A stretch of DNA of 63,981 bases, the filler included, from Albugo candida (lineage: Eukaryota), in the NCBI GenBank assembly GCA_040437565.1. It is 2 parts of 2 records of this genome, joined end to end, with 100 filler letters (N's around TTAATTAATTAA, not from the genome) between each part and the next. Parts side by side here need not be neighbours in the genome. Positions count along the whole stretch, not along the records: positions 32,084 to 63,981 come from JBDOQK010000097.1; 1 more part is not named here. The stretch is one strand, 5' to 3'. Every line of letters starts with the position of its first letter. Position 1 is the first letter of the stretch. The notes below the pieces were generated by a model that ran no database searches, was not told the origin of the DNA, and saw only the letters and a list, made by a program, of their open reading frames with translations. This document shows, piece after piece, positions 8,921-63,981 of this stretch. A program made the translations under genes and the position numbers.

Positions 8921-9540
8921 TTAATATAAGGTTTCGATTATAAGGAAACTATTATTTACGGGTTGATTGATTGATAATCACACTCAATATGCACGATTTA
9001 AACCAATAGCGTTGCTTAGACGAGTATGAGCGTATGCACTGCTATGATCGATAGATGCACGAGACTCATACCGCTCAAACCATTATCATGACTGTCGTCC
9101 ACGCCTTTTGAACTCGCATTAGGTATTCTGGTTTCTCCGATAAGTCGTGTGCTTCTCCGAAACAGGAAATAGGAATGCGCCAATATCGCAATCTTAGCAG
9201 GAGCACACATCTGATAGATTGGGATATATTTAATACGCTTGCATCCTGGCTATTTAAAACATTGTAGCACATTGTAATAATACAGCGGAATCATCGCAGC
9301 GACTTCTATTGGGCTTGAAAGCGGTCTAAAATACTCTTTTGATTGTGCGTGAATTTGAGAGCTGCCATTGGCTTGTGTAAAGTGCACGACACTTGTAACC
9401 ATCAATAAGTGAGTGGGGTGGCCAAATTCTGAAGATTTATTAATATATAGGGGTCCAACTACCTGTGTGGACGAGACGCATACTGAAGGAGGCATTGCCA
9501 ACGCATCCGAGCTTCTGTTCTTCCCTGTCTACATTTCATA

Positions 9541-20733: not shown

Positions 20734-22309
20734 TGATGTATCGCGTAAATTTGAAAATGAAGAGTGGATCTGCCGGGTGAGCTAAGCCATAAAGTGCAAA
20801 AGAGGTACATACTGTTTTCCCAGCGGCATATTGTATCGATCCAATGATCAAAGAGGATCAGGTATAGGTATCCAAATTTATAGAGTAGTAAATGGAAGAG
20901 AAGTTGTACGGCTGTACCATTTACGACGTCATGTTTTTGGGGAAACTTGCCCAACAGAATGAATACATACATTTACCTCTTTGACATTAATATTACCAGT
21001 TATATTAAGACAACTAGGTAGTTTTCAAACCAATCAGCGGGATCCTGAAAATTGATTGCTATGAAACCCTTTTTAACAGTTTCAATGCAACGTTCAATCG
21101 ACTACTGCTCGACACAAGAAAAGTACGGATGGAGGAATAGGGTCAGATTTACATGCACTGGCTACTACGGCTTTGAAGTATTACACATTTTCACGCGCTA
21201 TATTATCGAATTGCATAGGCATGTGATGTGAGCAATTCATGCATTATGTGGGGATTTGATCTCCCACCACCCTGAAATACAATTCTCCCTGCGTTTTTAA
21301 ATTATTACAGTGTGTCTTTGATTTTTACTACCGTATGTCTCAGCTTATATTGCTGTCATGTGTTTCTGGTTTATATTGCCATTAAATGTACGTGATTATA
21401 TTATTAGCATGCGTTTTTATTTATAATATTTCACCGGTGTACTTCATATAATTATCGCAATTGACGCGAGCACATCCAATGATTTTCCTGCGTCTATTTT
21501 GTGCGATAAGGAGTTTTATTCCTTCACATTACGCAACTTTTTCTTTCTCTTATCTATCACTTACATTGTTATGTGCATCGTCAAGTGGATATCATATCCT
21601 GATCTACGACTGTAGCGCCTCCACAAGCTGGAATAGGTGCAGCTTGAGGCAGACAACTCCATTCACACTTTATATCTCGTGTATATTCACTACCTATGAG
21701 GCCTGCTCTTCGCAGCGATTGGAAAGGACGATTGTAAATCATTCTTTCTAACCACAATCTTAATGGTGGTCTGCACTTCCATCTCGTTTGTGCATGTTTT
21801 ATAGAGCAAAATGAAGTCGATTAAAACTATGCTATGCACTTATATATAGCATTTGATCTTTGAGCTAGCTTCACCTTTCTTCTTAGCATCGAAGGGTACA
21901 CTGGTACTTAAAGCAGCTGATCTGGATACAACGTACTTGTAGATCGCGGGAAACTGTCTCGCATAATCGCTACTTCTGCCATCAATTCAATATCAATAAT
22001 GCGTTTTCTTTGGCTTCTATCGACTTTTCATCCGCACAAAAGACACGTTTAACAATCCGGAATAATCGTGTCTCGCTTTAGGAATCCGGCTTTTGCTTTG
22101 TTCGTCACTAAAACAGCTTGTTCATGCAAACGCTTATCACATTGGCTCGTTGTATTCTAGTTTGAGAAAAACGACTAGAGGATTGGTGGCTTGAAGCATT
22201 CATGTTATTGATTACCATTACAATATTTTGAGCCAGAGTATTGATTGTCCGCAAGACACATGAGTATTTTCTTTGTCCAGGTCTAAATTATATATCCTAG
22301 TCTAGTCTT

Positions 22310-43500: not shown

Positions 43501-44070
43501 CGGGAGAGAATGGACGCGCTGGATTCCGAACGAGTTCGAACTTTTATGGCTACATCACGGCATCTTCGAAAACGTGTATTACCAATTTTCGAGGATTTAC
43601 AGTTTCGTCTCGCCTTTCGGATGTTGCCAGTTCGATCTCGTTTCTGGTTCTTAAAGGATATTCAGCCCGACATTATATTGTGCACGCAGCCTTCGTGTGG
43701 GGCAGTGGAATCCGATCAACATCTCTTTCTAGAGTGCGACCACACGGCACAGTTATGGAGGGAGTTACTCCCTAGTTGGGATCAGTTTTTCTCCTCTCGA
43801 CCACGTTGGACGCATATTGCATGTGCAATCGTACCAGCACTACGGTCGGAGTGGAAAGAATATTTAGCAATTATATCAGATTTATGGCTTGCATTGCAAG
43901 CGGTGACACTGCACTTCGTCTGGACAGATCGGAATCGTCGTTTGTCGATCAGCGATCAGCAACTCCGACAGTTCCAGCACTTTCCGTGATCTACACCACG
44001 CTTAATGCGCACGTTCGGTACTTTCGAAGACAGTGTTACGAACAAGAGGAACGAATCCGGCTTGCAAAGG
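40582..44070 (+). mobile_element. L1-like LINE: 5'-complete, ORF1 frameshifted, ORF2 internally deleted, zf-RVT retained
   Basis: 91-nt 5' UTR, ORF1 ATG at 40673 (MVQVDISTKPRVLAST). ORF 43192-43989 has C...CGAVESDQHLFLEC...LW...VWTDRNRR (zf-RVT). Homology to the 29-31 kb copy stops near 44070. Confidence 0.82.
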
Positions 44071-45339
44071 TATGCGAGCATACCTTTGATTTGATGAAAC
44101 TCACTGACAGGAATGCCCACTGGAAATAAAACCGTAAACTTCTTCTTCTTTTGTAGAATTTTGTACTCGTAGAAAAAATGTGATCACTGTTTCTATAGCA
44201 ACTCAATTAAATGTCCGCTGCACGCCCCACAAGATCACTTACATTTGTCCGAGGGACTTTGCTTCACCTATAAGCTTCTGAACGAGTGTGAGCNNNNNNN
44301 NNNNNNNNNNNNNNNNNNNNNNNNNNNNNNNNNNNNNNNNNNNNNNNNNNNNNNNNNNNNNNNNNNNNNNNNNNNNNNNNNNNNNNNNNNNNNCACGTTC
44401 GGTACTTTCGAAGACAGTGTTACGAACAAGAGGAACGAATCCGGCTTGCAAAGGTATGCGAGCATACCTTTGATTTGATGAAACTCACTGACAGGAATGC
44501 CCACTGGAAATAAAACCGTAAACTTCTTCTTCTTTTGTAGAATTTTGTACTCGTAGAAAAAATGTGATCACTGTTTCTATAGCAACTCAATTAAATGTCC
44601 GCTGCACGCCCCACAAGATCACTTACATTTGTCCGAGGGACTTTGCTTCACCTATAAGCTTCTGAACGAGTGTGAGCTTCTCAGCGGGGAGATAAATAGA
44701 TTGTAGATTAGATCGACATATTTTGTAAATGAGAATCACAAGATCCTTTCCCTTATATAAGATTTTTCGTTTCCTTCAACTGAAGTACAATTTGTAGATA
44801 AGGCAGTAGTGAAGCAATATTAAAGCGGTCGGTCAACGGTGAGTGGATCTACGACTCGGTATAGTATCATGAATATAAGGATGTGTACCGTTACTAATAA
44901 AAAGCTGGAAATTCAGAAGATTGGCATTAAATCGTTTTGAGCTGTAGCTTTGTATTTAAAAATGAATGTATAATAATGTGGGCCACGAGACTTGAACGCG
45001 AGAGAATACAACCAAAAATGGAGTGAATACCTGATTAAATGCATAATAGTGTGTACCACGTAACTCGAAAAGGAGTGAATATAATAAGTCCCTATCTATA
45101 ATGAAATAGTATATATAGGTTATACACATAGGATAATTATGTGTGCGACCTTACTTAGAAAGGGAGTGAATTTAACCAAAAAGGGAGTGAATATAACAAT
45201 TCCATAAAAAATACCAATTTGATAAATAAAATAGACCAAGGCTGTATACTATACGTACGGATATACACATGCCTAGGATTATAACGAAAAAAAAACAGTC
45301 TTGGATTAAAACCCGTGATCAATAATGCACTATGTAGTA

Positions 45340-48300
45340 AGGATTATGAAGCATGCAATTACGCGTCCCTTATTGCACAACCTCTGCTATTATGGCCGAA
45401 CTGGTTGCACATTCCACATCTCGCTCGCTTGCACGCCACGTGACGTTCGATCCCCATCAAGCAGTCGATGATAGGAAGCCTTCGAATTCTCCTTAACACA
45501 ATTTTACTAACCCAATTTTCTAATGTCGAAGTGTTGTAGTTGTAGTATGTGTCACGCATGTATTGGAAGCTGATCGGGGAGGACACAGTGGTCCTAGCAC
45601 GCTTAACCTCCTAAAGCTTCAACAGCACACTGCTGTTCGAACTTGTGATATTCGCTTTCGCCTTCTCGTACTCCTCCGTTGTTCCTGAATGAGCCAATAT
45701 CCACGCCAAATTCTTCAACAACTTTTACTCGTATTTCACCAAATGCCGGAAGCAGAAAAAATGTGGGACGCCGGGTGCCGATGTATGTGTTGGAAACCGG
45801 AGCTACTGATTGCAGCGACGGTGAGTTGCAGACCTCCACTGGTGGAAGGTCACCATCTCCTAAATAGTCGTAGGCAGTGAAAGGTCGCAGAGAGACATAA
45901 GAAAGCTGAGTTTTCAAGGGAGTTCCCAATATATCTTTAAACAGCAAGTCTTTGTGAGTTACCATTTGTACGGTTTCTAATAGGATTATGAGCCTAAGCA
46001 ACTAGAGACTACGTGGTGCTACGTGACCGACGCAACAGGAAGGACAGAACTTATCTTCATTGTCAGACTCCGATAGCGACGGAGAAGAACGCAACGAATT
46101 CAAGATTGGACATGCGGGGACTCCCATACACTGGAATGACAATGACTGGACGTTTTACAAGAATTCCATGCTGAATGCGTTCGAGGAAAGCTTATTAAAG
46201 CGGATAGCTATTGGATAAGAGTGTCAAGACGTAAGCTGGAAGACGAAGAGAATGGCGAATTCAAGAAAACGGAAGCCAAAATCAAAATTTTATCCAACGA
46301 TCACTCTCAATGAAACTTGCGAAACAAGTGATGATGGAAAATACCGGCACGGAGATGTGGGCTGAGCTCGTATCGATCTAAGAGGGGCAAGAAATATCCT
46401 GCTATGACTGCGCAGAAGGTGTATCGCTTGCAGGGCGAGCTACACAAGACTTATCTGCGTGGAAAAGGAAACGTACGGAGCCATCTCTACAAACTTTTCG
46501 ATATCAAGAGCCAACTTGCAGATTAAAGATCACCCGTAAACGACTTTCAGATAGTTGATCGCATATTAAGAAGTCTTCCGTGACAGGCTTCTTATGATGA
46601 ATTAAGGTGTTAAGTGTTGTTCAGCACGAACTCGGCAAAATACACACCGGAATTGCTTCGAGAGATGATAATTACCGCAGAATCACGAAACGAAGACTGG
46701 GGAAACCATGTTTTCGGAAACAAGCATATGCGCAAGGAGAAACTCAGCTTGGAAAGAGGACATATAACCATACTGATATAAAAACAGGAGAAACAATTAG
46801 AACTGGTGGTTGCTATCATTTCAATGAAGATCATTTCAAACGTGATTGTCCAAATTTGGAAGGAAGAAAAACGCAAAATCAAATCATGCTCGTTCGGGTG
46901 ATCAAAAGGCAGCGACACGTGAAGTTGAAGAAAATCCAGATGATGATCGTAAAAATGCACAGAAGCGCAAAGTTGTGATGGGCGAAGTCGCAAAGGTCAT
47001 CAGTAAAGGATATGAACCTATTCAATTAGACTTTGACTCGGGATCGAATATACATATCACACAGCGTGCAAGAAATATTTAGGACACTACAAATTATGGA
47101 TGATAGCGAGTAGAATCCAAATATTTCAGGCTTTTCTGATGGTGTTGACACTAAAGCAGAAAGATTTGCAACCATTCTTCTTTCAGTGATGAATGACGAA
47201 CAAATGGTGTTCTTTCTTGTGGAAGACGTATTGTATGTCCCAACAGCTGGCTGCAATTTATTCATAACTGGCCTAGCAATGGATCAAGGTTTCAAAATGA
47301 CATGGAATAATGGCAACCAATCATTGGGAATGCTAAAGGATGGAGCAAGTGTAATTCGAACACAATAAAACAATCATCTATGGACGTTTACTGCTCATAA
47401 TTTTGGCAATGACGCAAACAAGATAGATCAACCGAGAAGTACGAAGCAAGAAGGAAAGGAGCACGATTTTGCAAACTTTGCTATTACAGATGGCGTCTCA
47501 GACATTGACGTCTGGCACGAGGGACTTAGACATATCTGCTCTGAATATATTCGGCTAATGGTTGATAAGTGGATGGCCAAGAACATCATGCTCAAGCGAC
47601 GGAGAAAACTGCATTGTGCGGATTGTCACTTTGGCAAGCATTTGGAGGACTAGTATACCATAAATGGCATAGTGCACACCAATGTTGGGCCAAACACGTC
47701 TCAGCTTGACCTGTTAGAGAGAGCACACCAGACATTGATCGGAATGATGAAGACAATGTACATCAATGTGGATTTNNNNNNNNNNNNNNNNNNNNNNNNN
47801 NNNNNNNNNNNNNNNNNNNNNNNNNNNNNNNNNNNNNNNNNNNNNNNNNNNNNNNNNNNNNNNNNNNNNNNNNNNCGAACAAATGGTGTTCTTTCTTGTG
47901 GAAGACGTATTGTATGTCCCAACAGCTGGCTGCAATTTATTCATAACTGGCCTAGCAATGGATCAAGGTTTCAAAATGACATGGAATAATGGCAACCAAT
48001 CATTGGGAATGCTAAAGGATGGAGCAAGTGTAATTCGAACACAATAAAACAATCATCTATGGACGTTTACTGCTCATAATTTTGGCAATGACGCAAACAA
48101 GATAGATCAACCGAGAAGTACGAAGCAAGAAGGAAAGGAGCACGATTTTGCAAACTTTGCTATTACAGATGGCGTCTCAGACATTGACGTCTGGCACGAG
48201 GGACTTAGACATATCTGCTCTGAATATATTCGGCTAATGGTTGATAAGTGGATGGCCAAGAACATCATGCTCAAGCGACGGAGAAAACTGCATTGTGCGG

Positions 48301-51300
48301 ATTGTCACTTTGGCAAGCATTTGGAGGACTAGTATACCATAAATGGCATAGTGCACACCAATGTTGGGCCAAACACGTCTCAGCTTGACCTGTTAGAGAG
48401 AGCACACCAGACATTGATCGGAATGATGAAGACAATGTACATCAATGTGGATTTCAGAAGTCGTTATGGGTGCATGCATTAGAGAATGCAATTTACATCA
48501 AGAATCGTGTGTACTGCAAAGGTGCAGCAAGTACACCATACGAGACCCTGTTTGGCCGTAAGGCGGACATCCATCACCTACGAGTATTTGGGTCCTCGAC
48601 TTACTGTAATATTCCCGTCTCAAAAAGAAAGAAAATGATAATGAGGTGCAGAATTACATTCTTGTTAGACTACTGCGAAGACATTGTGGGTTTTAACGTG
48701 TACTTCCCCACCGAACACAAGAAGGGATTCGTTTCAGATGTGAGAATTTTCAATGAAGTACAAGGACCATCATTAATCCACATATTCAAATGAAGTCAAG
48801 AGATGTTACAGGCATTCGATGACTTCATCGAACAGGATACCCAACCTGGTACAAGTTCAGATCGGGAAGCAGAGGTCAGCGAAGTTTTTGACAATGATAT
48901 TGCTAGGAGTGGAACTGATAGCGGTCTCGAGGACTGGGATGCCGAGTCAGCCGGTCACGTCACAGGTCTGGCTACAGTGAAAGAAATCGTAGACTACTCG
49001 CAAGACGATGAGCAAAAGCACAACTGTTCATTGAATTAAAGTACGAACGTGAACTTGTAACGGATCACATTACCAAGCAACAGCTAGCAATCCCCTACAA
49101 TCAATCAATCGGAAAAAGACGTCCGAGGGGAGTCGAAATTCGACGGATGCGCAAAGGAAACGCACCAAGATAAATGCAAAGCTACTGAATGCTACTAAAT
49201 TGAAACATATGACAGCCGTCTAAGAATGGAGTAGAAATTGAACTTATGGTATTAGAGCACTTCAAAGTGTATTCAGCATTCAAGATATCAAAAATGGATC
49301 GTCGTGGGTAGCGAGGATTACAAGAAAAGGACATCAAAATTCTCAAGAATTGTCACCAAGCCATGCGATAAAAACACGCAGAATTGTTGCGTAATGCAAT
49401 GGATACTGAAATGGCCTATTTAAAGAAAAAAGAAGTGTTAAGGGAAATTCCGTGTTCGGATATCCCCTGTGGACAACAAACTATCAGAACGATGTGGCTC
49501 TTCGATCTCAAAACAGATCAGTTAGGCTACGTGGTGAGGTTATACGAACGGGTTGTGGCGAGAGGTGACAAGCAGAGGCCTGGTATTTTAAGGATACCCT
49601 CTCTCCTGTGGCACGCATGGCCACATTTAGGATGTTTGTTGCGGTGTGCATCTGACAAGATCTTACAATCTATCAGGGTGACATCAATACCGCCTACCTC
49701 AATGCCGCCCTAAGTATCAAGCAATTCCTGGATGAAGTCGAAGGATATCCTTGCAAAAACAAAGGGATGGTTTACATCATTGACAAAGCACTCTATGGAT
49801 TACGCTAATCCGGAAGAGAGTGGAAAAGCAAAGTGAATCACTAATTTGTTGATTATGGATCTATGCAATCTGCGACAGAACCATGCCTCTACTTCTAGGA
49901 TCATGACGGCGAATTCATGATTGTACTTTTCTACGTGGATGACATTTTATGCGCAACCAAAAATCTAGACTTCAAAATCAAAATGTTTGTGTTTCTGGAG
50001 AAGTATCATGGGCTGAATGATAAGGTCTGCTGAACACGTACTTGGGTGTGCAGGTGGAACAGAACGAACATTCCACAAAGATCCACCAGACAAAGTATTG
50101 CCAAGCAATTATTAACCGCTTCAATTTCGATAATACTCCTCCAAGTAGAATTCCGATGGAGATCAACACATTTTTGAGTGCGGTGGTCGCAGATATGCAA
50201 CAAAGAAAACAAATACTCGGAAATGGAAAGACTTGTACATGCCGAAAGCTCGTCGGGCCGTTGATTTACCTCGCGATTTTTACCAGACCTGACCTCGCAT
50301 ATCCCGTTGGACAATTAAGTCGCTACGTGTAGAATCCTACGCAGCAGCACATAGGAGCCGCAAAAAGAGTCCTTAGGTACTGATTGTCACGAAGACACAA
50401 GGAATTTTATACTCTCGAAATATGACAGAAGTACAACAATCAATTTTGATTATCGATGGCTACTATGACTCTGACTGGGGAATGATCCCGACTCACATAA
50501 AAGCATTACCGGTTTCGTGCACTGCCTTGCTGGGGTTGCAATATCATGGTCTTCCAGACGTCAAAGCATCGTGGCCCAGTCAACTGCAGAGGAAGAATAT
50601 GTCGTGGCATGCGATGCTTGTATGGAAGGACAAGGGCTCCGTAACGTTTTACTACAAGTTTTCTCAAACGTCAAATCGTTTTTCCCTATTGGGATTGACA
50701 ATCAAGCGGCCAATGTAATGGAAATGAATTCTACATACAGCCGTAGAACAAGACAAATTGAACTGCGCTGGCATTACGTCTGAGAGCAAGTGGTAAAAGG
50801 AAATGTGGAGTTATGGAAAGTCAAGACTGACTTAAATCCAGCAGACATCATGACAAGCCTCTTGCCAGTGTAAGATTCGAAAGATTGAGCTCAATGATCG
50901 GTAGACCAAACTACACCTTTCCAATCTGATGGACTAACTTTGGAAGAGGCCGGTTGGAACCGGATCTACTGATTGCAGCGACGGTAAGTTGAAGACCTCC
51001 ATGGGTGGAAGTTCACCATCTCCTGGAAAGGCGAAGGCAGTGAAAGGCCACAGAGAGACATCAGATACTTACTAAGGGAGTTCCCAATATAACTTTAAGG
51101 AAGCAAGTCTTTGTGTGTTATTTTTTGTACGGTTTCTAATAGTGTGCATAGCTTTCATAATCCCCTTGTCCCTATCCGATATCACGAATGCTCGAGATGG
51201 CTTGAGGTGAGAAGTAGAACTTCAAAAACCGGCCTTAGTTATCTTTTTTTTTCTAACGACACAAGACAAACTCCGATTATTTCGATCTCGTTGTTTCCAT

Positions 51301-53349: not shown

Positions 53350-56300
53350 TGAAGCCGAACAAATTAGTGAAGGCGAATGACCTGGAGAGTTCGAGATGAG
53401 GACCCTTGATCGATATCTCACTGGAATGGCAAGGTAGCACTTCGACAAGGTTAAATGGATCTGGGCATCAGAATTATCAACCGTTGAAAATCTGATGAAC
53501 AGCGTGTTGAAAGTCTACGACAGATAAATTTTTAAGGAGCAAGCCTCAAGTTTGATGAGGGCGAGGAAAAAATATGATCGATCCTGAACGGAGAACTATC
53601 AATACCTGGTTGCGGTTACATGTTCGGAAAATCTTCCAGAACGCTTTGTTCTTGGTTCTTATTCAAAGGAGCAGCTCCGGCGGTGAAGCAAGCCATAAAG
53701 ACGAGGTCCGACCGCTACCGTACTAGCCATCTCTAGCAGGCATAATAGTGGGCGGACTTTTCCACGATATTTGAGAACAATACAAGCGAGAACGCGCTTA
53801 GTGTGGTCAGAAAGTCTACTCCAGGTCGTAATAATTCATGGAGTTCTGACGTCGCGACAAAGGCAGTGGCGCATGGAGAGTTAAAGCGATGTGGGGGGGG
53901 GCTGCAGACTAAGTCGGCCCTACAAAGTGAGATTGTCCGAGAAGTACGAGCACAGATGNNNNNNNNNNNNNNNNNNNNNNNNNNNNNNNNNNNNNNNNNN
54001 NNNNNNNNNNNNNNNNNNNNNNNNNNNNNNNNNNNNNNNNNNNNNNNNNNNNNNNNNNATCAACTTAGTTGATCACGCATTCAACTATTGTAGAATGTTC
54101 CTTGCGCGGAAAAGAACCTTGTTGCGCAGATGTAACAGCATCTCTAACTTTTTTCGTTTCCTCTTTTGATTACCAATCCCACATTTTAAGTACGGATCGC
54201 GGAGGCAAATATCGCAATGTCGATATGTTTTACAAGTCGGCTGGGTTAATAAGACAAGTAAGCGAGATAAATAAACAAGCGCCAAATGAAAAGGCAGAAC
54301 ACATGCATATTACTGCGCTAAATATGAACCGATGCATGTTGTTCTCAAGTGGATTGCCTTCACGATTCTGGGGTATTGCGGTGCCGTACGCCGCGTATAA
54401 TTAAAATCGCAAGCCCGAGCATCTCGACTTTGAATAGAGCACCGCCGCTTGAGCTACTGGCGGATAAAAATGTAGCAATTCACGCATATTGGTGACTGGA
54501 AGTCCTTGCACCGCATATCGCGACCCGGGATGCAGAACATGGAAGCCGCGGGACAAGGCTGGGATGATTGTAGTAACACATGATGAAGCTAAGGGATTCA
54601 AGATGTACCTTTTCCCACGAGAAGTTGGTAGTGACAACGCAACACGCCGTATTGTTGAAACAATGGGAATTGACGAATATCAGCATTTATAGGATCATCT
54701 ACATCAAGAACATTCATCCGTGTAAGCCGTCAAGCGGAAGGAGACATACGCGTGATCAAAGAAAACGTTTAAAGGCGGGTAACGGTGGCAGAAAAGGCAT
54801 GAAGAAAATAAAAAGACTTAAAACTACTCGATCCATTGGCGCGAGAAACGTTACGGTGGCGATGGTTGTTGTGGTTGGAGATCCTACCATTTATCGAGAA
54901 GAAAAAACATAGTTCGTGGAGGCAGAGAAGTTGCTTGATGCGACACTCTCGGAATGTGAATTCCTGAAGGCAAACGGTACGAATGAGCTTACAATAAGCC
55001 CGTCGTGTTAGAAGTCACTACGTTCCAAATGGGTTTTCAACACGAAAAGGTGCTCAAATGGAATTCTTGTGAGATTTAAGTCGAGACTTGTGGCATGCGG
55101 TAACGAGCAGGTACATGGAGTGGTTACACTTATGATTAAGCGCTTTGGTGGCCATGACGACAGAAAAAGTCGTGCTATCTCTGGCAAAATTATGGAGAGT
55201 ACCAGCTTGATATGACGATGTTCAAAACATTTGCGTAAAAAGCCGAGAAAGAGGAAGATCTTGAAATTGTCGTCCACGTGCCTTAGGGTGTATAGTTTGA
55301 TGCGGATTAGATAAGCAGTCTTGGAACTCATGAAAAGATCAAGACGGCGTTGAGACTTTGCAAAAGCCTGCATGGGCTTAAATAAGCCGGACGCTTGTGG
55401 GCACAATTTCTACACGGTACACTATTCACGATCGGATTTATCCAGTGTCATTGTTTATACAAGGAAGCTGGGGGGTCGGCGACCAATCTAATGGGAATCT
55501 ATGTGATCGGCTCGTTGGTTACCGGAACAAGCGTCAGCGAGGTGAACAATTTTATTAGGACATGTGAGTGCTTGAAGTGAAAGACCTCGGAGATGTGACC
55601 AAGTTATTTGGCATCGGAATGACTTACGACAACAAAAATCTTTATTATCTTAAAAAAGCACAAAGTATTCGCGAAACTCTCCCTGAAATCCATTTGGAGC
55701 AGGCTTACTCATCGCGTGCACTCATTGGCGAGTAACAAGATGGCGAGGAACAGAATGGCAAGGATAAGGGTGAGTTATTGCCACGTTGGGGTGTCACCAC
55801 GGTTGTGTACCCCACTGTCAGAATGTTTTCAATCCATCATTGGAAGTCTGTTGTGGATGGTGCGTCCTAGAAACCGGATGTTGCGTTCGCTGTGTATCGA
55901 GCAAGTTGATGTGCGCACGCCCCACGAGAATATGACTGTCGTTGGATAAAGAGAATCGTTCGCTATCTGAATGGTACGATTGAACTTAAGTTAAAACTAG
56001 AAGGAACGGCCACAGAGGGTGAATCGTCAACGATTATGCTGGAACTCTAAGGTGACGCAGATTACGCAGTGAATCGGACGGACCGTAAATCGGTCAGTGG
56101 GGGTGTCATTTTTCTAAGTGAAATGATTGTCGGGTGGATGTGCCGTAAACAAGTGAACGTCGCTTTATCCACGATTGTGGCCGAGTTCGTGGCAGCTTCA
56201 ATGGTGGCAAGTGATTTGTTCAGACTGGATGGAGTATTTGCTAGGAGAATTTGAATTGCGTGTTGCAAGCCAATGGTGATGCACTTGAATGATCAAGCTG

Positions 56301-56701
56301 GGATAAGACTGATTTAACGAAAAAAAAGCGCAGACAGGGATAAGCATATAGCGGTGCGACTCAAGTTTATTGAGAATTGAAGTCAGAAGAAAGTGAACAA
56401 GGTGGACTATTGAGTTACGGTCGTGCAAGCTGACAATCTTACCAAGACGTTCCCTGCGCCACGCCTCAATGAGATGCGCAAGCTACTCTTACTTCTTTAA
56501 TGGCACCTTGGGAAGGTGTGTTGAAAATGCGCGACTACTGATGTCGAAAGAACACGACTCTTTGAGTGGATAAAGCGCCTCTTGGTAATCTACGACGATG
56601 ATGATTTTAGGAACTGATAGAAGAGGTGATTGGAACGTAAGCTTTGAAAAAACCAGTTTAGCATTTACCCCACAGTCCTCAAGAAAGATGAACAAACAAC
56701 A
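53350..56701 (+). mobile_element. Decayed copia retrotransposon (gag, integrase, RT, RNase H, 3' LTR from 56519)
   Basis: ILSTDRGGKY...RCMLFSSGLPSRFWG; RT RSKWVF...RFKSRLVACG; RNase H DRKSVSGG...WMCRKQVNVALSTIVAEFVA. Confidence 0.85.
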
Positions 56702-58036
56702 CCTTCTTCACAGAATATTTAATTTTCAAACTAGCATTGGTTTGTATATTCTCGAAGCACAACAATGTTTTTACGTTTTTAAAATGAGGATGGTTTTTCT
56801 GGGCACATCCGTCTGGTGCAATCGCTGAAATGGTTGGGGTACATTGGAAAGCATGTTTTGTAAATAGTCCCTTAGTTCATTTATAGCAAATCTAAGTCCA
56901 TACCGAAGCTGTCTTGACAGCAACTTCTATATCGTGGGCAACGACATTACTGATGCTGACTTGTCAGGTAAGAAATCTCTCCCAACACTGTACAAATTAG
57001 TTTCTTTCTAGCATAATCTTATGATAGTCTACTTCAAAGTTCAAATTAGAGCACAATAACATGTAATACTTACTCAAAATATGGATGGTTTCTTCGGGTA
57101 CTTTTTCCAGGTATATTCGCTAAACAAGCTGAACGCGCTACGATGTATGAAAAATCTTTGTCGGAATTTCGAACGTACCACACTATACTCTGTTATTACA
57201 GGTCCCTATACTTGAATTTGGGCGAAAAGACACACATGTTGAATTGAATGTGCGCTTGCACTTGCACTAGAATCACCCTTCCTTTCTATCTGGTTATACC
57301 ACTCTTCCAAGATATTGTTATGAACTAAATTTTATCATTGATTCCTTCTACAGCTATGTAGAGTGGGATACTGCTGAAGGAAACATATACAACTGTGCGA
57401 AAGACCAGTCGGCTTTGGATGGGATATCTTAGATGCAACCGAGTTATCGAAAAATTCTAAAAGTGGTGTCTTGATGTGTTTATGACCTCTCAAATCGTTA
57501 GTGTTATGCTTATTTCATGTTCTACATAGGCGCCAGAGATTTTCTTTATAGCAACAATGTATCAGAAATGTCGGTTGAATATAGTGGTCTGAAGCAACAT
57601 ACACATTTATTTTTAATGGAAATTGCTGCGTAAACAACCCTAAATTTGGAAATTACAAACATATGCTCTACTTTCCTAGCGCCATGTCCGCTGCTCTCAA
57701 GTCCAATTCTATTTGGTGGCAGTAAGACCATAAGAAAAGCTGAAGTTATTTTAAGCAAAGTAAACGTAGCCTTGCCTAGTAGGAGTTTAGTTGTCAAAGC
57801 CGGTAAGTGAATTAGAGAAAAATTATTTATATCAAGCTGATAATTTCTTACATCCTACTACGTTAGTGACGCTGCGTAAGGGAAGGCTATTGGTAGAGGT
57901 GCACCACCAGATCATGTGTTTCGATCCGATATGCTGTGAAAACTGCATGCTTTAGAGAAAGCTTAGTTAGAATCAGAAAAGAGCGCAAATCAACAAAAGG
58001 CAACCGTGGCTGGATTTTCTTTTCTCAGATCGCACT

Positions 58037-58265
58037 TGTTGCGTAGAAGGTAGAAGTAAAAGTAAAAATATATTAGCATTAACCTTGCATGTCAGCACTA
58101 CAACATGCATGTGCAGTGGCAGAACAAACTTGACTATGTCACGTTTAAAATGACCTTCGTCTGGTACCATGTGGTGACCTTCTCTCTTTGTCCCATCTGT
58201 CACATTGTCACAAAAACAGTCGTTCAGTTGATGTCGGAAATTACCTGTGATGGGTCTTGCAGTTA
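58037..58265 (-). mobile_element. LTR-like repeat homologous to 22310-22538
   Basis: Inverted-orientation homology to the 22.3-22.5 kb segment; ends ...CAACA; no TSD seen. Confidence 0.6.
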
Positions 58266-58354
58266 AAATGCAAGCCCTTGACGACCTGTCAAGACAGAAT
58301 CGTCTAAGAGTTACTCCCACCAGCCAGAAGTGGACTTGGGAGTAGCGGACACGG

Positions 58355-58510
58355 CGGTACGAAAGTAGGGGGTATTTTGTAATTTCTATTTTCAGGAATG
58401 GTAGACTCCTTAATTTACTTAATTGAAGGTACGAAAGTAGAGGTATGTTTGTAATTTCTCTATATAGGGGTGTGTCCGTAGTCAAAATAGGGTGTGTCCG
58501 CAGCAATTCC
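58355..58510. repeat. Orphan MULE-like TIR end with internal direct repeats
   Basis: Duplicated GGTACGAAAGTAG...TTTGTAATTTCT and duplicated GGGTGTGTCCG; terminal AATTCCC like the other MULE ends here. Confidence 0.45.
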
Positions 58511-59942
58511 CTTTTCAATGAGCCTGAGCTTTTTCAACCATAGATACTATAGTCGAGCATGACATTCCGTTTCTCACGAAACTCATTAAAAAACGATTCG
58601 ACTGAGATAAAAATAATCCAAGACCTGGTGAAATCAAAAAAGAAGTGGTAAATCAGAGCGGTGTTGATCATTCCGCAACAGTAAGCTCGAGGACAGTAAG
58701 AAACTTACTTTTATCCTGACGCTAATACAAGATGCATGCTGATGTGTACCGAACTCGAATTTCCAACGCGGCTGTAATGGGGTAAATTCATTGTCCGTAC
58801 TCGTTCTATATATGTTACTGAATTTTTTACTCTGTTTTTGTGATGAACAAGTTGAAGCTAATCTCACAAGATGGAACGCTCAAATGTTGTAGCCTGTTTT
58901 GGATTCTATAATAAAGCTAGCATTCAACGTTTTCGGCCTTAGTATGAGGATGGTGCAGCTGCTACGGATCATTTGTTTTCGTCTTTCGAAATATTAGTTC
59001 TATGTCTCGGCCAGCAGAGGGGAAATGTTCTGCGCCTTTTGAGCTATTCAAAATAATCTACTTCATTCTTCAGAAAGAGGTTTGCGGCACCTTCATTAAC
59101 TTGATATATTTGGATGTCGAAGTACCAGCGCTGTTATCCGCTGTAAGTTTGACTAAAGAATGAGCTGTTCTCTATCAAAATACTACCATCAATATTAACT
59201 CTGTCCTTTTTTTGTTCTCATTTTATTTATTTTCCCGTTTCGTTCTTTACTATCAACATGGAAGGTACTGGTTCCATTCCGTACCAAAATTGAGAGCATG
59301 AGTATATCCGTTTCTTGGCTTGATCGGGACGAGGCAAGCGACAAACATTAGGTATTCATTTCAAAATTGCTATGGGAAGTTGCTATCAAATATATCATAC
59401 AAATGCTCGATGCGGCAATGACGCTGTATACCACACGACCAAATAATGATACAAAATGCAAAGGATGTGTACTATACGTGTACACATTTGTGTTCAACAT
59501 TAGCCAGGGAAAGCGCCGAAGAGCAACAGCAAGATAGAAGCACCTTCGGTGACAGGACTTACGCTAATCCAAGCGAAATCGTTCAATCAATAATTAGGGT
59601 CAATCAAAAACTCCACTCGTACATTTTGTGTGATGTAAAGTGATAAACGGCGTGATAAAGCAATGCGGACATAACATAGCTGTTTCTCCGATGTGGATTT
59701 TTCCTTCCGTAGCCATTCATCCCTCAAAAACGTTTGCTTTGCGTTCCCGCTAAGTATCCAAAACTGCAAAGGCATCTCGTAGATATAAATTTGCGAACAA
59801 ATTTCTGTAAACCTTGCAGTCAGGGATATGGTCTTAATCTCCGACCATAAAGTGACTACCGTTTTATTTGAATGTAGTTGAGCAACGAATTGATTTCTAT
59901 CACCTAAGTGAATTGTGCTTACGCACTCAAAGGTGTTGAAGT

Positions 59943-60189
59943 TGGGGGTCCATACCCAGCTTAGTCGGTTAAACACTTGATCGCATGGACCCCCTGCCGC
60001 AGGTCGTTAGTTCCATCCCCGGCAGTGTGGGCAGCGGTTTGAGACCACCAAAGCATTAAGCGTGAAAAATATCTGCCTCCCCGAGTTTGGAGACAGATTT
60101 GAGTGATGTTCACACGGTCAGGGGATCATGGGGGATAAGGGAGGTAGTTAAAAAAAACTAGATAAAAAGTGTAATGAAATCCTTCACAA
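59943..60189 (+). mobile_element. tRNA-derived SINE, full length with TSD
   Basis: Perfect 16-bp TSD TCAAAGGTGTTGAAGT at 59927-59942 and 60190-60205; A-box-like CAGCTTAGTCGG; B-box-like GTTCCATCC. Confidence 0.92.
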
Positions 60190-60539
60190 TCAAAGGTGTT
60201 GAAGTATGAATTAGAAGATATTGAGCAGTACAGTCTCGTTCCATCTTAAGCGACTGAACTAACTAAGGGACACGAACCCAATATTGATATCCTAGATAAG
60301 AATGTTATGCGATTAAGTGTTATCTTTCGAGAAATGCTATCAAGTATATAAGAAACATAGTGAGTGGTTGATATCTGGGAATGGTACATCTAAGCAGACA
60401 TCAATACGTCGTATTTTTCTTGTAGGAATGTATTCAACGAGATCCAATTTATCAGTGTTGGGTTAGTATCGGTGGATGATAAAGATAACTGGAGGTGGTT
60501 ATGAAAAATTTTGCTCTCCCCCTCCATCCAACTCTAGCA

Positions 60540-61450
60540 TTTGTGATATTCGAGAGGAGGCAATGCCTTATCAAGAAACGCAGATAATGACGTCACACAT
60601 TCCACACTTTTTTTTCAATAAGAAATTATGGGGAAGTTTGACGAGAAATACAAGTCCAAGTTGTTGAACAATTGGCGCTTATATTGGTTCATTCACGTCG
60701 AAGGTGGAGTACGAGAAGCTGTTATAGAATATCGTCAGCTTGGGCAGTTCTTCGATGTTGCTTCGAGGGTTGGCCTTACAGAATGGCTAATAGCTCACTC
60801 CCGATGTCCAAGATACAACCCTTCAGATCAAATGGAAGCGGTAAGCAGTGTGTTGAATAGAATTTGGAGTCTTCCCATCATCAACTTCCTGATTGTGTTT
60901 GAGCGTCAAGCGGCACCAAAGTGGGCTGAAAACATTAGATGAAGGAGATTGTGAGGGTAACTCTATATGCATCGCGCAAGGTGGTTAGACGATCGCTGCT
61001 GTGAAGTGGGGTCAAATCGATGAATTCTTGACCTGTTGCTTCATCGTCACAGCCCACTCAGGACTAGGGGTATTCCGATGAAGTTAGCTATTCGATTCCG
61101 TGTTAACGTTGTACGATGCTCGTGTGGTTACTTCGAAGATGTTAGGTCACCTTGCGTTCTTGCACTACTAGCCATGAAGCATCCCGTAAAATTGACCAAT
61201 ATGGTTACGTCTGTTCAAAGAGATACGAAGACAACATAATCTCAGTCGTGCGAAATGATTTTCACACCAGAGCTGTGCTCGATGCTTCATCAATTTTCGA
61301 GAGAACGAGGGCGTGAAAAGAAGAAGTGATTCGAAAGCAAGCTAGTAAGAAAAGCTGAAAAGTTCCAAACAAGAACGCATGGAATTTCCAACCATTCTGG
61401 CCAAAACCGTAGGAGATGTTCGGCATGCGACACATCATCATGACATGTTC
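60540..61450 (+). mobile_element. MULE transposase C-terminal relic with SWIM zinc finger
   Basis: RCSCGYFEDVRSPCVLAL (SWIM CxC...CxH-like) and a terminal RRCSAC knuckle remnant. Confidence 0.65.
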
Positions 61451-61859
61451 TCTTTCATACATAGTGCATTTTAATCGCATTTTTGATCCAATATTGGGTT
61501 TTCTTCGCTATTATGATAGGCATGTGTACAGGCATGCAGCCTGAACTTCCTAAAGTATTTTTATAGCTTGTTTCCATTTCATCACCATTTTTTCTGAAAG
61601 GAAAAATATGCTGCAAAAAACACTTTGCGTAAGGTATACTACCAAAAATGTATTAAGAAATTCGTTTTTTGAGAACCTATGGATTTTATACCACTTTTCA
61701 AGAAAAATATAATTATAAACCAAAAGTTTGAAAAATACGGTTTGTATACCAAAACGAATATTACACGGGCGAAAGTGACAAAAAACACTTATAAAAAGTA
61801 CACCAAAAATTCTGAATTTTATGTGAGATTATGAAACATATAGTTTTTCATCACAAGGA

Positions 61860-63657
61860 AGAGATTAATCCTTGCAGGTGTGCTTGTTTTGGCCGTAGCT
61901 ACCGCATGTAGTGCACTTGTTGCAGCGCTTCTTCTTGAAAGCTTCTGTAGCAGCCTGAGACTCGATTCGCTACTACTTCTTTGGCCGGCCATGATTCTTG
62001 AACACCGTGAGAGGTTGGTTCTTTTCTAAACTCGTCAGCTCATCCATCGTCACGCATGGACTCCTGAATACCATGGGATCGTAAGCACGATGGTACACTT
62101 CCTTGGGCCACGACGCATCGCAGGAAGTCTTGAGTAGCAAGAGCTCGTTGACGGATCGAAGGGCCGCATAGAGATGAGAGCATGAAATTTTAATGTCGCC
62201 AAATTAGCCACAAGAACATGGAATTCCAGGATTATCCAAAACAACAGAATACTCGACAGGTATTATCTCCATCTTTTCTGACCTTGACCACGATGGATGA
62301 CAGGCAACTCGAGATGATTTCGATCTTGTCAACTACAGGGCAAAGCGCTTGCGCTCGAATTCCTTGGTTGCGTAATCTTTGAGTTCCCCCCCCCACGAAC
62401 CCGACTTGGCGACGAGATCAACCCACTTGATCCTTATTACTTTTTCACCGCCGTGAGACAGTCCAGAAGTGGCTTCTCTCTAGCATTCTGCGAGAAGTTA
62501 TGAACAGAATCCACGTTGTTAATAATCATGAACCCTAAGCGCGGACGTATACAATACGCGACAGCCCATTCGAGCTTGTTTGCATCTAGTAGCCATTGTA
62601 ATGATTTTGCAGTTTTTCCCTCAACTCACTGGCTCGCCGTTTGAAGGACGCAACCGTCAAGGACTTGGCCACATTCCATGCTTGATTCTCTATTATCGCA
62701 TTGCGTAACTTAAATTCTCGAGCATGTGACGAACACACAGTGAGGGATATCACCTGCTTTAACTTCCATGGCCGGAATGAGACCCTTGTCACGATCGGAG
62801 ATGACCAATCCTGGCGCTTCTATATAGCGCAGAAGAAAGTTCAGGAACCCTGACCAATTGTATTTTGTCTCGTCTAACACCCAAACGACCGCGACAATTT
62901 GGATCACATTGTTACTCTTTTACAGCAAGCGAAAAAAGGACTCCACCACATTTGAGTTTTATAAATGCACCATCCAAATTGATACCGCTATCTGCAAATT
63001 CGCGAAACACATTGTTGCCGGGCTTGTGTACGATGACAGCCCGGAAAATTGGTTCTCACGAAACGCGATATCTGCCTTGTGTCCACGCTTATCCGTTTCG
63101 TGTACGTATGACAAGCTGAACTAGTACGGCGTGCGATCTCCATGGCAGAGTTTCGCTTTGAGCCGAATGCAGGCGTCCAATCAAGTCTGTTATGTCAGTC
63201 GACGCCCAGCTGCCGTCGGCTTCTTCAGCATCTCACTTTAAATCGTGACGACCCTTATCAAGGCGAACTATAGGGCCTAATCAAGCAAAGCGGCGTATCA
63301 AGACTTGTTTCCCCAACTCGTTTCGTATGAAGCCAAGTCGACCCTCGTAGCGTCGTGTGCTGCATTAACGAATGAGGTGGCTCAAATCCCCTACCAAACG
63401 CAAAAGCGACTACGAAGCTGCAATGCGAATCGAGACACATCACCTTGTAGCGTCCGTGGTCACTTGATATGACACGAAACACTGGTCCAATTTTTTTTTT
63501 TCGTTGTGTTCAATAATGGACCGTCGCGAGTGGCGTAGTCGCCTGAGTAGGAAAAATAGGCGCGACCGTCCGTCCAGTCCCCTGGCAAAAATCCCGGACT
63601 TGACTCGTCTACCTCACCAACGTAACCGTCCTTGCGGGTAGTAGTGATAGTCGCCAT
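61860..63657 (-). mobile_element. MuDR-type MULE transposase pseudogene
   Basis: FRVISSDHGRYKVMCLDSHCSF (MuDR DNA-binding domain); ETKYNWSGFL...VISDRDKGLIPAM (MULE catalytic domain); C-terminal CTTCGSYGQNKHTC. Confidence 0.85.
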
Positions 63658-63692
63658 GCAGATATTCTAAGAAAGTAGCATACAAGAATGTG

Positions 63693-63694
<2 letters not shown>

Positions 63695-63728
<34 letters not shown>
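63695..63728 (-). repeat. Poly(A) tract (minus strand) just 3' of tRNA-Tyr
   Basis: About 34 consecutive T on the plus strand, ending 26 nt from the tRNA 3' end. Confidence 0.9.
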
Positions 63729-63732
<4 letters not shown>

Positions 63733-63754
63733 GAATATAAAAGAAATTATTAAC

Positions 63755-63838
63755 TCCGAGTGGCCGGAATCGAACCAGCGACCAATTGATTTCGGTGTAT
63801 ACTACAGTCAATCGCTCTACCAACTGAGCTACACTCGG
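63755..63838 (-). tRNA. tRNA-Tyr(GTA) with 11-nt intron (63791-63801)
   Basis: CCGAGTG/CACTCGG acceptor stem, A box TAGCTCAGTTGG, anticodon stem ATTGA/TCAAT with GTA, intron after position 37, B box GTTCGATTC, discriminator A, no encoded CCA, downstream TTTCTTTT terminator-like run. Confidence 0.96.
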
Positions 63839-63840
63839 AA

Positions 63841-63981
63841 ACTTCTCAATTTGCCGAATACTAAGTAACCGGCCAATTTAGCAAAACAACTCGAAAAAAC
63901 AACCTTTTTCAACTCCTTCCTCTCGAAAACAATGGTTCAAGTCGACATATCGACACAACCCAGGGTGCTAGCGTCCACTTG
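63841..63981 (+). mobile_element. 5' end of a second copy of the 40582 LINE family (runs off the window)
   Basis: Homologous to 40582-40722; same 91-nt 5' UTR; ORF1 ATG at 63932 (MVQVDISTQPRVLAST). Confidence 0.88.

Follow-up and report, generated by a model that had tools for sequence, protein, structure and literature searches.

Two 5′-complete copies of an L1-like LINE in Albugo candida begin head-to-head at the 5′ edge of a tRNA gene and a SINE: a candidate for position-specific integration at Pol III promoters

Results

LINE 5′ ends adjoin Pol III-type heads at two independent junctions

Within a 63,981-nt stretch of Albugo candida DNA (assembly GCA_040437565.1; hereafter the window), both of the 5′-complete copies of an L1-like LINE family (2/2 over the whole 64 kb) adjoin a Pol III-type head, with two and three bases between the LINE and an oppositely oriented partner. 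We propose, with a probability of about 0.6, that this family integrates position-specifically at the 5′ edge of genes with a Pol III internal promoter. The proposal rests on two junctions, and two cases cannot prove homing; both come from a single window, which is rich in repeats and, the draft assembly being gapped, contains 14 N runs.

On the tRNA side, the LINE starts at 63841 on the + strand (ACTTCTCAAT) and position +1 of a tRNA-Tyr gene lies at 63838 on the − strand, leaving two bases, ‘aa’ (63839-63840, assigned to neither strand), between them. On the SINE side, the LINE starts at 40582 (+) and the tRNA-equivalent +1 of the SINE is at 40578 (−), with three bases in between. Both junctions are head-to-head, with the LINE on the + strand and the tRNA gene or SINE on the − strand, and the Pol III gene is kept exactly up to position +1 at each of them. 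Measured from the first base of the A box, the LINE begins 10 bp away in one case (63831 to 63841) and 11 bp away in the other (40571 to 40582). A sequence-only reading of the window had described this geometry, including both LINE starts, the two spacings and the A-box distances, and all of it was borne out: by the sequence, Rfam and ARAGORN for the tRNA-Tyr junction, by the sequence, BLAST and alignment for the SINE junction, and by the box coordinates 63831 and 40571 for the distances. In the alignment of the two copies, the tetranucleotide GGAR stands directly before ACTTCTC in both, as GGAG at 40578-40581 and as GGAA at 63837-63840, the latter made up of 63837-63838 and the two junction bases. 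Because GGAR is common to both copies, the junction is ambiguous by up to 4 nt; the two Gs of the tRNA copy are bases 1-2 of the tRNA.

The two junctions are real and independent. BLAST aligned the copy at 40582 (copy A) with that at 63841 (copy B) at 84.4% identity over 141 columns (63841-63979), and the homology starts exactly at the first LINE base. When we aligned the partners, one a tRNA-Tyr gene and the other a SINE head, the A-box and B-box regions were common to both, but only 2 of the 7 acceptor-stem positions were. Since the copies are 84-85% identical and the partners share little beyond the boxes, and also because one partner runs on into a SINE body that is present elsewhere without a LINE, we regard the junctions as separate events. 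As the sequence-only reading had held, they are not products of one segmental duplication: the LINE copies have diverged (84% identity), and their partners are an intron-bearing tRNA-Tyr gene and a dispersed SINE.

The LINE copies and their family

Copy B is represented by its 5′ end (63841-63981, +), which comprises a 91-nt 5′ UTR (63841-63931) and the beginning of ORF1, from an ATG at 63932 (MVQVDISTQPRVLAST, MVQVDIST), before it runs off the window; UTR length and first residues are as the earlier reading gave them. The N-terminus of its ORF1 matches P0023-P0026, among them an Albugo candida hypothetical protein. Copy A (40582-44071, +) is degenerate, with a 5′ UTR at 40582-40672, a frameshifted ORF1 from 40673 to about 43100 and an ORF2 in which the endonuclease begins at 43167. 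Most of the endonuclease and the RT fall within an assembly gap (43260-43359), after which the ORF2 C-terminus with a candidate CCHC motif occupies 43360-44071. The reads show that copy A has no intact 3′ end: it departs from the consensus of the family at 44071, where loose ends (44071/44072; 3186 and 1794 reads, agreement 0.93-0.97) lead on into LINE sequence that is missing there. When the 30 nt that precede copy A were sought as a duplication in 43900-46000, only an 8-mer 1.5 kb away was found, and a degenerate duplication at 44072, considered as the TSD of copy A, is moot because the reads show the copy broken there. An older, divergent, 5′-truncated LINE-like copy occupies 29662-31245 (−), with 77% DNA identity over the 3′ part of ORF2 and weaker protein-level RT matches up to 31245. 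On its 5′ side, where the exact junction is undefined, box scans revealed neither an A box nor a B box nearby.

Homologous proteins provided the domain assignments. Positions 43167-43259 align to the first endonuclease residues of P0003 and P0004, and the ORF2 C-terminus of the window copy is 45-54% identical to its homologues. The three full-length ORF2 homologues (P0003, P0004 and P0019) contain Exo_endo_phos (PF03372) and RVT_1 (PF00078), and a Pfam search of the three at E ≤ 0.01 found no RNase H after the RT. Compared with solved structures, P0003 matched human L1 ORF2p best (3.2e-48, residues 26-820), with R2 at 1.3e-20. The translation of 43360-43989 holds a C-x4-C-x7-H-x4-C motif, for which Pfam zf-RVT scored E = 0.096, below the cut-off. 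As for ORF1, Pfam found nothing in four long relatives and one fragment, bar one weak sub-threshold match, and an Atlas search with the ORF1-like N-terminus gave no usable match. The model of an ORF1 relative, P0037 (38% identical), is predicted to contain two RRM-like folds at residues 195-371 (Foldseek E about 2e-3; VIA Z 6-7.6); one VIA match, to take an example, had Z 6.9 and rmsd 2.7 with 74 aligned. For the modeled C-terminal domain of an ORF1 relative (pLDDT 90) there was no PDB match, the best hits reaching Foldseek E 0.3 and VIA Z 3.9 (rmsd 4.0, 74 aligned). Judged from its sequence, the family is an L1-like, high-copy APE and RT LINE of an Albugo-type oomycete with a long ORF1. Its L1-likeness, also part of the earlier reading, agrees with the Exo_endo_phos and RVT_1 domains of the homologues and rests on those homologues and on the best solved-structure match, the RT of the window copy itself lying in the assembly gap.

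The tRNA-Tyr gene and the SINE

The first partner is a tRNA-Tyr(GTA) gene with an 11-nt intron at 63755-63838 (−), supported by Rfam (RF00005, 62.3 bits), by intron-aware ARAGORN, which called tRNA-Tyr(gta) with the same 11-nt intron, and by box scans that placed the A box TAGCTCAGTTGG at 63831->63820 and the B box GGTTCGATTCC at 63776->63766 on the − strand. With default settings, ARAGORN miscalls the gene as Thr(tgt). Its retained intron shows that the gene did not arise by retrocopying of a mature tRNA. It is the one tRNA gene that Rfam and ARAGORN identified in the 64-kb window, and it bears a LINE (1/1). A run of 33 A (A33) lies 25 nt downstream of the gene, on the tRNA strand, and the ORFs to the left of the tRNA had been guessed to encode a MULE transposase, for which Pfam gave no support.

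The second partner belongs to a SINE family of 235 nt with three copies in the window, as defined by BLAST and alignment. The copy adjoining LINE copy A spans 40346-40581 (−), with its 3′ end at 40346 and the +1 equivalent at 40578, both placed by BLAST and by alignment with the two other copies. It carries an A-box-like motif (TATCTCAGTCGG, 40571->40560) and a B-box-like motif (AGTTCGATCCC, 40527->40517) that start 44 nt apart, a spacing as in tRNA. Neither of the SINE heads searched (40480-40600 and 59930-60060) matched Rfam RF00005 even at E ≤ 10. The proposed tRNA origin of the SINE is thus supported by the box-like motifs and their spacing, but not by an Rfam tRNA score. A reference copy at 59943-60190 (+), delimited by BLAST, alignment and its TSD, retains its 5′ leader intact (TGGGGGT...), lacks a LINE at its head and is flanked by a perfect 15-bp TSD (59928-59942 and 60191-60205); relative to this copy, the SINE ending at 40581 is without the 7-nt leader. 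Two of the three SINE heads in the window have no LINE. The reads show a loose end at the SINE 3′ end, 40346, with 1722 reads and heterogeneous flanks (agreement 0.37), and a raw-read depth over the SINE about 30 times that of the flank bin. They also reveal a SINE nested in another LINE copy through the joints 43678->40346 and 40533->43665, which imply a 14-bp TSD for the nested element. This and the 15-bp TSD of the reference SINE show TPRT with 14-15-bp duplications to operate in this genome. Overall, the window is dense in repeats, among them the LINE, the SINEs, a Copia-like element and a 123-bp repeat (the X repeat).

Copy number and the search for further junctions

Read-based estimates of LINE copy number gave 28-44 contigs per run over one 3′ position and 3-14 over 5′ positions, and, given this abundance, there may be many LINE copies elsewhere. 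Raw-read depth was about 1900 in the junction bin, compared with about 4325 over the body of the SINE and about 2916 over the 5′ part of the LINE. This dip would fit a situation in which most copies of both repeats are not joined as they are here, although divergence of the SINE head and the LINE UTR would also give a dip. No read loose end was found at 40582 among the rows listed. Searches for further junctions in other collections were negative. Among metagenome contigs, a piece of ORF1 produced 164 pattern matches with none confirmed, and a 21-nt LINE pattern produced a single match, which shares nothing with the LINE except the pattern and was apparently due to chance. The genome contigs collection yielded no LINE match, and the viral contigs yielded none by DNA pattern and 14 pattern matches with the ORF1 protein, none of them confirmed. 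Seven proteins with the ORF1 N-terminus all start with Met (five at MVQVD and two further in) and contain no flank-derived residues. When the antisense ORF that crosses the tRNA-LINE junction served as the query, we obtained four spurious ORFs over tRNA-Tyr genes, none with LINE-derived residues.

Alternative explanations for the two junctions

The alternative that survives best is a regional bias, in which the family simply prefers open, nucleosome-poor DNA near Pol III genes or within repeat clusters, at no fixed position, and the like spacing is luck. The repeat density of the window (LINE, SINEs, Copia-like element and X repeat) favors it, and the depth dip at the junction, together with the third copy without a Pol III head, suggests that many copies lie elsewhere. 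However, even if the first copy is granted a position within 60 bp of a head, our simulation gave a probability of about 7e-5 that a second copy matches its spacing within 1 bp and its orientation, and the retention of the Pol III gene exactly to +1 at both junctions likewise speaks against a merely regional preference. We consider this explanation unlikely.

Quite improbable, in our judgment, is the reversed order of events, in which the LINE terminus was the target and received the SINE in one copy and a tRNA retrocopy in the other. What suggests it is that GACTTGT (40339-40345) and GACTTCT (40581-40587) flank the SINE like a 7-bp TSD with one mismatch, and that the A33 run lies 25 nt downstream of the tRNA on its strand. 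Nevertheless, the SINE abutting copy A sits within an array of the X repeat, and the GACTTGT to the left of its tail is part of the 123-bp X unit; in another X copy (45070-45215), the corresponding AAGTCCCTAT stands without an adjacent SINE. Insertion of the SINE into the LINE is ruled out, as the apparent TSD belongs to this unrelated repeat, and its belonging there is consistent with the SINE having been present before the LINE. Moreover, the sequences past the SINE tail and past the A33 run are not mutually homologous, so there is no LINE continuation at those places. The tRNA-Tyr gene also retains its intron, and it would be very unlikely for two such insertions to hit one and the same LINE base and to be truncated alike.

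Even less probable is an artefact, with the junctions created by mis-joining in a short-read scaffolded assembly or by later deletions. The 14 N runs of the window, an exact 191-bp duplication across the gap at 44294-44393 and the break of copy A at 44071 give this idea some basis, but the sequence is free of gaps at both junctions (the N runs closest to them are at 43260 and 54058), no repeat common to the two sides of a junction is there to drive a mis-join, and five listed runs (X1-X5) contain 0.84-0.93 of the sampled words of 54100-63981. The same spacing would not recur in two artefacts.

Chance does not explain the two junctions: although n = 2 and many features of a 64-kb window can be paired after the fact by a pattern-seeking reader, a simulation that generously allowed a 60-bp window for the first event put the observed geometry at about 4e-5 per LINE end and about 1e-7 jointly, such that random placement would yield both junctions about once per 10^7 windows, and a pure chance juxtaposition is the least probable reading of all. 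Template switching onto a Pol III RNA was ruled out by reasoning from the orientation, as it would yield a same-strand fusion.

Discussion

Position-specific integration at the 5′ edge of genes with a Pol III internal promoter is the reading that we favor. The sequence-only reading had claimed that the family targets Pol III promoters; its junctions proved to be real, independent and beyond chance, and family-wide targeting is seen only as 2/2 copies in one window. Under this reading, the targets would include true tRNA genes as well as SINEs that have A and B boxes, and the LINE, transcribed in the opposite direction to the gene, would face it with its 5′ end at a distance of 0-3 bp from the tRNA +1 and 10-11 bp from the A box. 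Integration would proceed by target-primed reverse transcription (TPRT), at a site presumably set by something that is bound to, or reads, the A and B boxes. We have a slight preference for an element protein tethered to TFIIIC or TFIIIB, by analogy with the TRE5-A ORF1p, which binds TFIIIB; the endonuclease might instead recognize the A box directly. If the TSD of the LINE were 14-15 bp, like those of the SINEs here, the first nick would fall at about tRNA +13/+14, inside the A box, and the duplication would make the gene next to the LINE 5′ end whole again. The GGAR at both junctions could reflect microhomology in 5′ end joining or be the true first bases of the element.

Several elements invite comparison. 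The closest in position is Dp_NLTR-A of Dictyostelium purpureum, a non-LTR element of which 16 copies lie 2-6 bp upstream of mature tRNA coding sequences, counted from their first base (Spaller et al. 2016, PMC5006619). The 2 bp at the tRNA-Tyr gene and the 3 bp at the SINE fall within that range, and the two ORFs, the APE-type endonuclease and the compact host genome are also shared, a likeness that leaves relative orientation aside. In contrast, NLTR-A has an RNase H after the RT, which was not detected in the three full-length ORF2 homologues here, its host is an amoebozoan and not an oomycete, and SINE heads are not reported as its targets. The TRE5 elements of Dictyostelium discoideum are L1-type APE-RT-zinc-finger LINEs that insert upstream of tRNA genes, oriented oppositely to them and with their own 5′ end toward the gene; their targeting needs the B box and TFIIIC, and the TRE5-A ORF1p binds TFIIIB subunits (PMC5911963, PMC5006619). 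They resemble the element described here in their opposite transcriptional orientation (LINE on +, tRNA gene and SINE on −). However, TRE5 inserts about 44-54 bp upstream (range 37-90) rather than 2 and 3 bp, that is, upstream of TFIIIB and not at the edge of the coding sequence. Yeast Ty3 integrates 1-4 bp away from where transcription starts and thereby about 12 bp upstream of the mature 5′ end, and DGLT-A of Dictyostelium 13-33 bp upstream (PMC5006619, PMC5911963). Both share with our element integration at or beside the Pol III start site, but they are LTR elements that depend on integrase, not on TPRT, and their sites are further upstream. What had been stated about TRE5 and Ty3 at the outset agrees with the two papers.

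Non-LTR elements with tRNA-gene targets also include NeSL-1_TV (tRNA-Pro), LIN15_SM (tRNA-Arg) and LIN25_SM (tRNA-Glu) (Kojima and Jurka 2015, PMC4640811). NeSL and LIN elements have a restriction-like endonuclease. Insertion here is at the edge of the gene and leaves it intact. Elements of the Tx1 clade such as Dewa, which lie within the L1 group and have an APE endonuclease, are sequence-specific non-LTR elements that also insert into tRNA genes. Each element of the NeSL, LIN and Tx1 types, going by such descriptions, recognizes one gene sequence, whereas the two targets found here share only the A and B boxes.

To our knowledge, tRNA-gene targeting has so far been documented in yeasts and dictyostelids. 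In compact genomes, the setting in which such targeting is thought to be favored, it is the textbook ‘safe haven’ strategy of retrotransposons. The genome of A. laibachii is compact and has 153 tRNA genes (PMC3130010). We found no tRNA-targeting LINE of an oomycete or stramenopile in the literature searched (including PMC3130010, PMC5348765, PMC9584435, PMC11540230 and PMC4640811). The novelty initially suspected holds for oomycetes within that literature, but the geometry itself is not unprecedented, as Dp_NLTR-A lies at 2-6 bp (PMC5006619). What is new is the host lineage only and, possibly, that SINE heads serve as targets.

A fuller scenario, which we find possible though rather doubtful, is that an L1-like LINE of an obligate-biotroph oomycete independently evolved the reading of the Pol III internal promoter: it would nick in the A box, rebuild the gene through a duplication of about 15 bp and use tRNA genes and SINEs as safe landing pads, with targeting perhaps exerted by the large C-terminal domain of ORF1. 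This would not amount to a new principle, the geometry being as in Dp_NLTR-A. If confirmed, the finding would represent a further independent origin of such targeting, in a distant eukaryotic lineage and by an L1-like element that also uses SINE heads, and it would add to the few cases in which a TPRT element, and not an integrase, is placed within a few bases of a tRNA gene. If true, position-specific integration would also explain part of the repeat architecture of Albugo and would provide polymorphic markers beside tRNA genes.

Two LINE Copies Start at the Heads of Pol III-Type Units

At the right end of the window, a plus-strand LINE copy (copy B, which runs off the end) begins at 63841 with ACTTCTCAAT and continues through a 91-nt leader to an ATG at 63932, the start of MVQVDISTQPRVLAST. 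The two bases "aa" (63839–63840) separate it from a minus-strand gene, 63755–63838, which Rfam scores at 62.3 bits as a canonical tRNA. ARAGORN, when introns are allowed, identifies it as tRNA-Tyr(gta) and places an 11-nt intron behind position 37; its default label, Thr(tgt), arises because the intron is ignored. Retention of the intron marks it as a gene rather than a mature-tRNA retrocopy. Twenty-five nt downstream of the tRNA 3′ end there is a run of 33 T (63697–63729; A33 on the tRNA strand), which precedes a minus-strand ORF starting at 63657 that is without a Pfam match.

The other 5′-complete copy (copy A, plus strand) starts at 40582 with the same sequence and has its ATG at 40673. 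A BLAST search of the window with 40582–44200 matched 63841–63979 at 84.4% identity over 141 columns, and both BLAST and alignment place the beginning of the homology at exactly 40582 and 63841. Copy A adjoins a short minus-strand repeat of ~235 nt (40346–40581), of which the window holds three copies. On each flank of the reference copy, 59943–60190, stands the same 15-bp sequence, a perfect direct repeat seen nowhere else in the window, which identifies the ~235-nt unit as a retroposed SINE. In its head, TATCTCAGTCGG resembles an A box and AGTTCGATCCC a B box; the two begin 44 nt apart, as the boxes of a tRNA do. The sequence-only reading had called this SINE tRNA-derived: the SINE, with its target-site duplication and box-like motifs, stands, whereas Rfam scored neither of the heads tested as a tRNA, even at E ≤ 10, so that we infer the tRNA origin from the boxes. 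The third copy (7705–7884, minus strand) shares the body and has a different, poorly alignable head with an exact B box, GGTTCGATCCC, at 7875–7885; it may represent a second subfamily whose tRNA-like head is of another type. The last bases of the SINE are ...CCTTGACAA (40346–40355), and a similar ...CATTGACAA is found near ~29388, ~275 nt past the ORF2 end of a LINE-like copy at 29.7 kb. This likeness, a match of 7–8 nt, may reflect a common 3′ terminus of a LINE–SINE pair.

Counting back from the A box, the tRNA-equivalent +1 of the SINE is 40578, and copy A begins 3 bases beyond it. The reference SINE has a 7-nt leader (TGGGGGT) that is missing from the SINE ending at 40581, which puts copy A slightly inside the transcribed region. 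Relative to the boxes, copy A occupies the same position in the SINE as copy B in the tRNA gene: the LINE begins 10 bp from where the A box starts in tRNA-Tyr (63831 to 63841) and 11 bp from it in the SINE (40571 to 40582). The spacings proposed from the sequence alone (2 bp from an opposite tRNA-Tyr, 3 bp from the SINE +1, and 10 and 11 bp from the A box) were all borne out, the first of them by Rfam, intron-aware ARAGORN and BLAST. Because GGAR stands directly before ACTTCTC in both LINE copies, the junction could be placed as much as 4 nt to the left; at tRNA-Tyr, the G pair of this motif consists of tRNA bases 1 and 2. When aligned, the two targets have essentially only the A-box and B-box regions in common.

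Order of Events and Alternative Origins

A ~123-bp repeat with AAAAGGGAGTGAAT... subunits (repeat X: 40224–40346, 44968–45203, 8789–8922, and 5903–5987) adjoins the SINE tail and recurs inverted ~1 kb past the broken end of copy A; reads and contigs also contain it in tandem form (joint 40346 to 40224, with "AT" between). GACTTGT lies to the left of the SINE tail and GACTTCT to the right of its head, and a 7-bp duplication of this kind would mean that the SINE had jumped into the end of the LINE. We rejected this reading, as alignment with the other copies of repeat X assigns GACTTGT to that repeat, which removes the sole sequence support for the reverse order. The arrangement fits a SINE that stood beside repeat X before the LINE arrived. 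A longer LINE interrupted twice at one base is countered by the sequences beyond the two partners, which are unrelated to each other. A template switch to a Pol III RNA would yield a fusion with both parts on one strand, and opposite strands are seen. Nor is chance a serious explanation: for a randomly placed and oriented LINE start and the three heads with A boxes in the window, the observed geometry has a probability of ~4e-5 per LINE start, and the joint chance is ~1e-7 (any head-to-head position within 60 bp for the first copy, a match within 1 bp for the second).

The LINE Family and Its Copies

Copy A is degenerate, with many frameshifts, and is interrupted by a 100-N gap (43260–43359) that conceals most of the endonuclease and reverse transcriptase; the endonuclease start is visible at 43167–43259. 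In a protein search, the ORF2 C-terminus (43360–43989) matched 22 longer proteins, including "pol-like" proteins of Globisporangium and Phytophthora and an Albugo laibachii protein 74% identical to it. Full-length homologs (1340–1400 aa) carry Exo_endo_phos and RVT_1, and Pfam found no RNase H in them at E ≤ 0.01. The best solved structure for an ORF2 homolog was human L1 ORF2p (3e-48 over endonuclease and reverse transcriptase; R2, 1e-20). A C-x4-C-x7-H-x4-C motif follows the reverse transcriptase in copy A, with a Pfam score under threshold. The ORF1 N-terminus gave seven short protein matches, one of them named as an Albugo candida hypothetical protein, and the host is accordingly a white-rust oomycete of Albugo type. 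ORF1 relatives are 730–864 aa long and contain no Pfam domain; the model of one of them, P0037 (38% identical), shows two RRM-like folds with weak matches (Z 6–7.6). Their C-terminal domain of ~350 residues (P0037 ~530–860; also in the relative P0047), to which 42263–42766 is homologous, is predicted by AlphaFold with pLDDT 90 and pTM 0.90. Pfam recognizes nothing in it, and structure comparison with the PDB yields no match (lowest Foldseek E 0.3; highest VIA Z 3.9); this modeled fold is a candidate for a new function, possibly target choice.

Three contig sets and one raw-read set were aligned to 40100–44293 at 80% likeness. Raw-read depth was ~2900–3600 in the first 500 nt of the LINE, ~1200–1350 midway along it and as high as ~8700 toward the 3′ end, with ~146 and ~253 in two flank bins; 28–44 distinct contigs per run covered single positions in the 3′ part and 3–14 in the 5′ part. 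The family is thus abundant and mostly 5′-truncated, like other LINEs. Copy A departs from the consensus of the family at 44071, where 3186 and 1794 reads continue with consistent sequence resembling the window's other LINE 3′ fragment (29746). Its 3′ end is therefore lost, and with it the place where a target-site duplication would show; a direct search for such a duplication of copy A found none. Family reads mostly depart at 41056 as well (1710 reads, agreement 0.96), and since the consensus of the clipped parts encodes this same region of ORF1, the site is a divergence hot spot. In one run, joints 43678 to 40346 and 40533 to 43665 reveal a 5′-truncated SINE lying inside a different LINE copy, with 14 bp duplicated. 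This and the 15-bp duplication of the SINE at 59.9 kb show that target-primed reverse transcription with 14–15-bp staggered nicks operates in this genome.

The window has 14 N runs and few long ORFs. A 191-bp repeat of 100% identity (44010–44200 and 44394–44584) on either side of a 100-N gap (44294–44393) is probably an unmerged scaffolding overlap. The window also holds a Copia-like LTR element (46000–49000; SH3_retrovirus domain, E 1e-12), a weak aspartyl-protease-like ORF (19816–20781) and a glycosyl hydrolase family 31 fragment (11055–11552).

Several observations speak against a strict targeting rule. An older, divergent LINE-like copy (29662–31245, minus strand) is 5′-truncated, and no A or B box lies near its 5′ side, where the exact junction is not defined. 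Two of the three SINE heads in the window are without a LINE. Read depth in the SINE–LINE junction bin is ~1900, against ~4325 and ~2916 on either side, a dip expected if most copies of both repeats are not joined in this way; divergence of the head and UTR would give a dip too. As for further junctions of the family, no loose end at 40582 was among those listed for 40100–44293, the metagenome, prokaryote-genome and viral contigs scanned held no further LINE copies, and two routes via predicted proteins recovered no upstream flanks of other copies.

Proposed Position-Specific Integration and Its Precedents

The sequence-only reading had proposed that this L1-like family targets the 5′ ends of Pol III genes in opposite orientation. 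Its junctions are confirmed and not due to chance; targeting as a family-wide, position-specific property is plausible, with a close precedent and two junctions behind it. We put at roughly 0.6 the probability of position-specific integration by this family, in opposite orientation, at the 5′ edge of genes with internal Pol III promoters. Since the targets share essentially only the boxes, the determinant would be the complex assembled on them (TFIIIC, TFIIIB) or the A box itself. We favor tethering over A-box recognition, by analogy with TRE5-A, whose ORF1 protein binds TFIIIB and whose targeting needs the B box, according to the available part of PMC5911963. If LINE duplications were 14–15 bp like those of the SINEs, the first nick would fall within the A box, near tRNA +13/+14 of the RNA-like strand, and the duplication would make the gene whole again.

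In the accessible portions of PMC5911963 and PMC5006619, Dp_NLTR-A of Dictyostelium purpureum (16 copies) is described as lying 2–6 bp upstream of mature tRNA 5′ ends. The Albugo junctions have the same geometry, although Dp_NLTR-A has an RNase H domain and none was detected in full-length homologs of the Albugo ORF2. As described in the same excerpts, TRE5 elements are likewise oppositely oriented and have the APE–RT–zinc-finger layout, of which the zinc finger is putative in the Albugo family, but they lie 44–54 bp upstream. Ty3 and DGLT-A, which sit at the Pol III start site or close to it, are both LTR elements. NeSL-type and planarian LIN elements are each specific to a single tRNA species, as far as the available text of PMC4640811 goes. 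A full-text literature search, with supplements and Repbase outside its reach, returned no tRNA-directed LINE in oomycetes or other stramenopiles, and none appears in the accessible text of papers on Albugo laibachii, Phytophthora infestans, Peronospora effusa and oomycete retrotransposons. If confirmed genome-wide, the Albugo family would represent tRNA targeting of a known kind that arose independently in a further lineage of eukaryotes.
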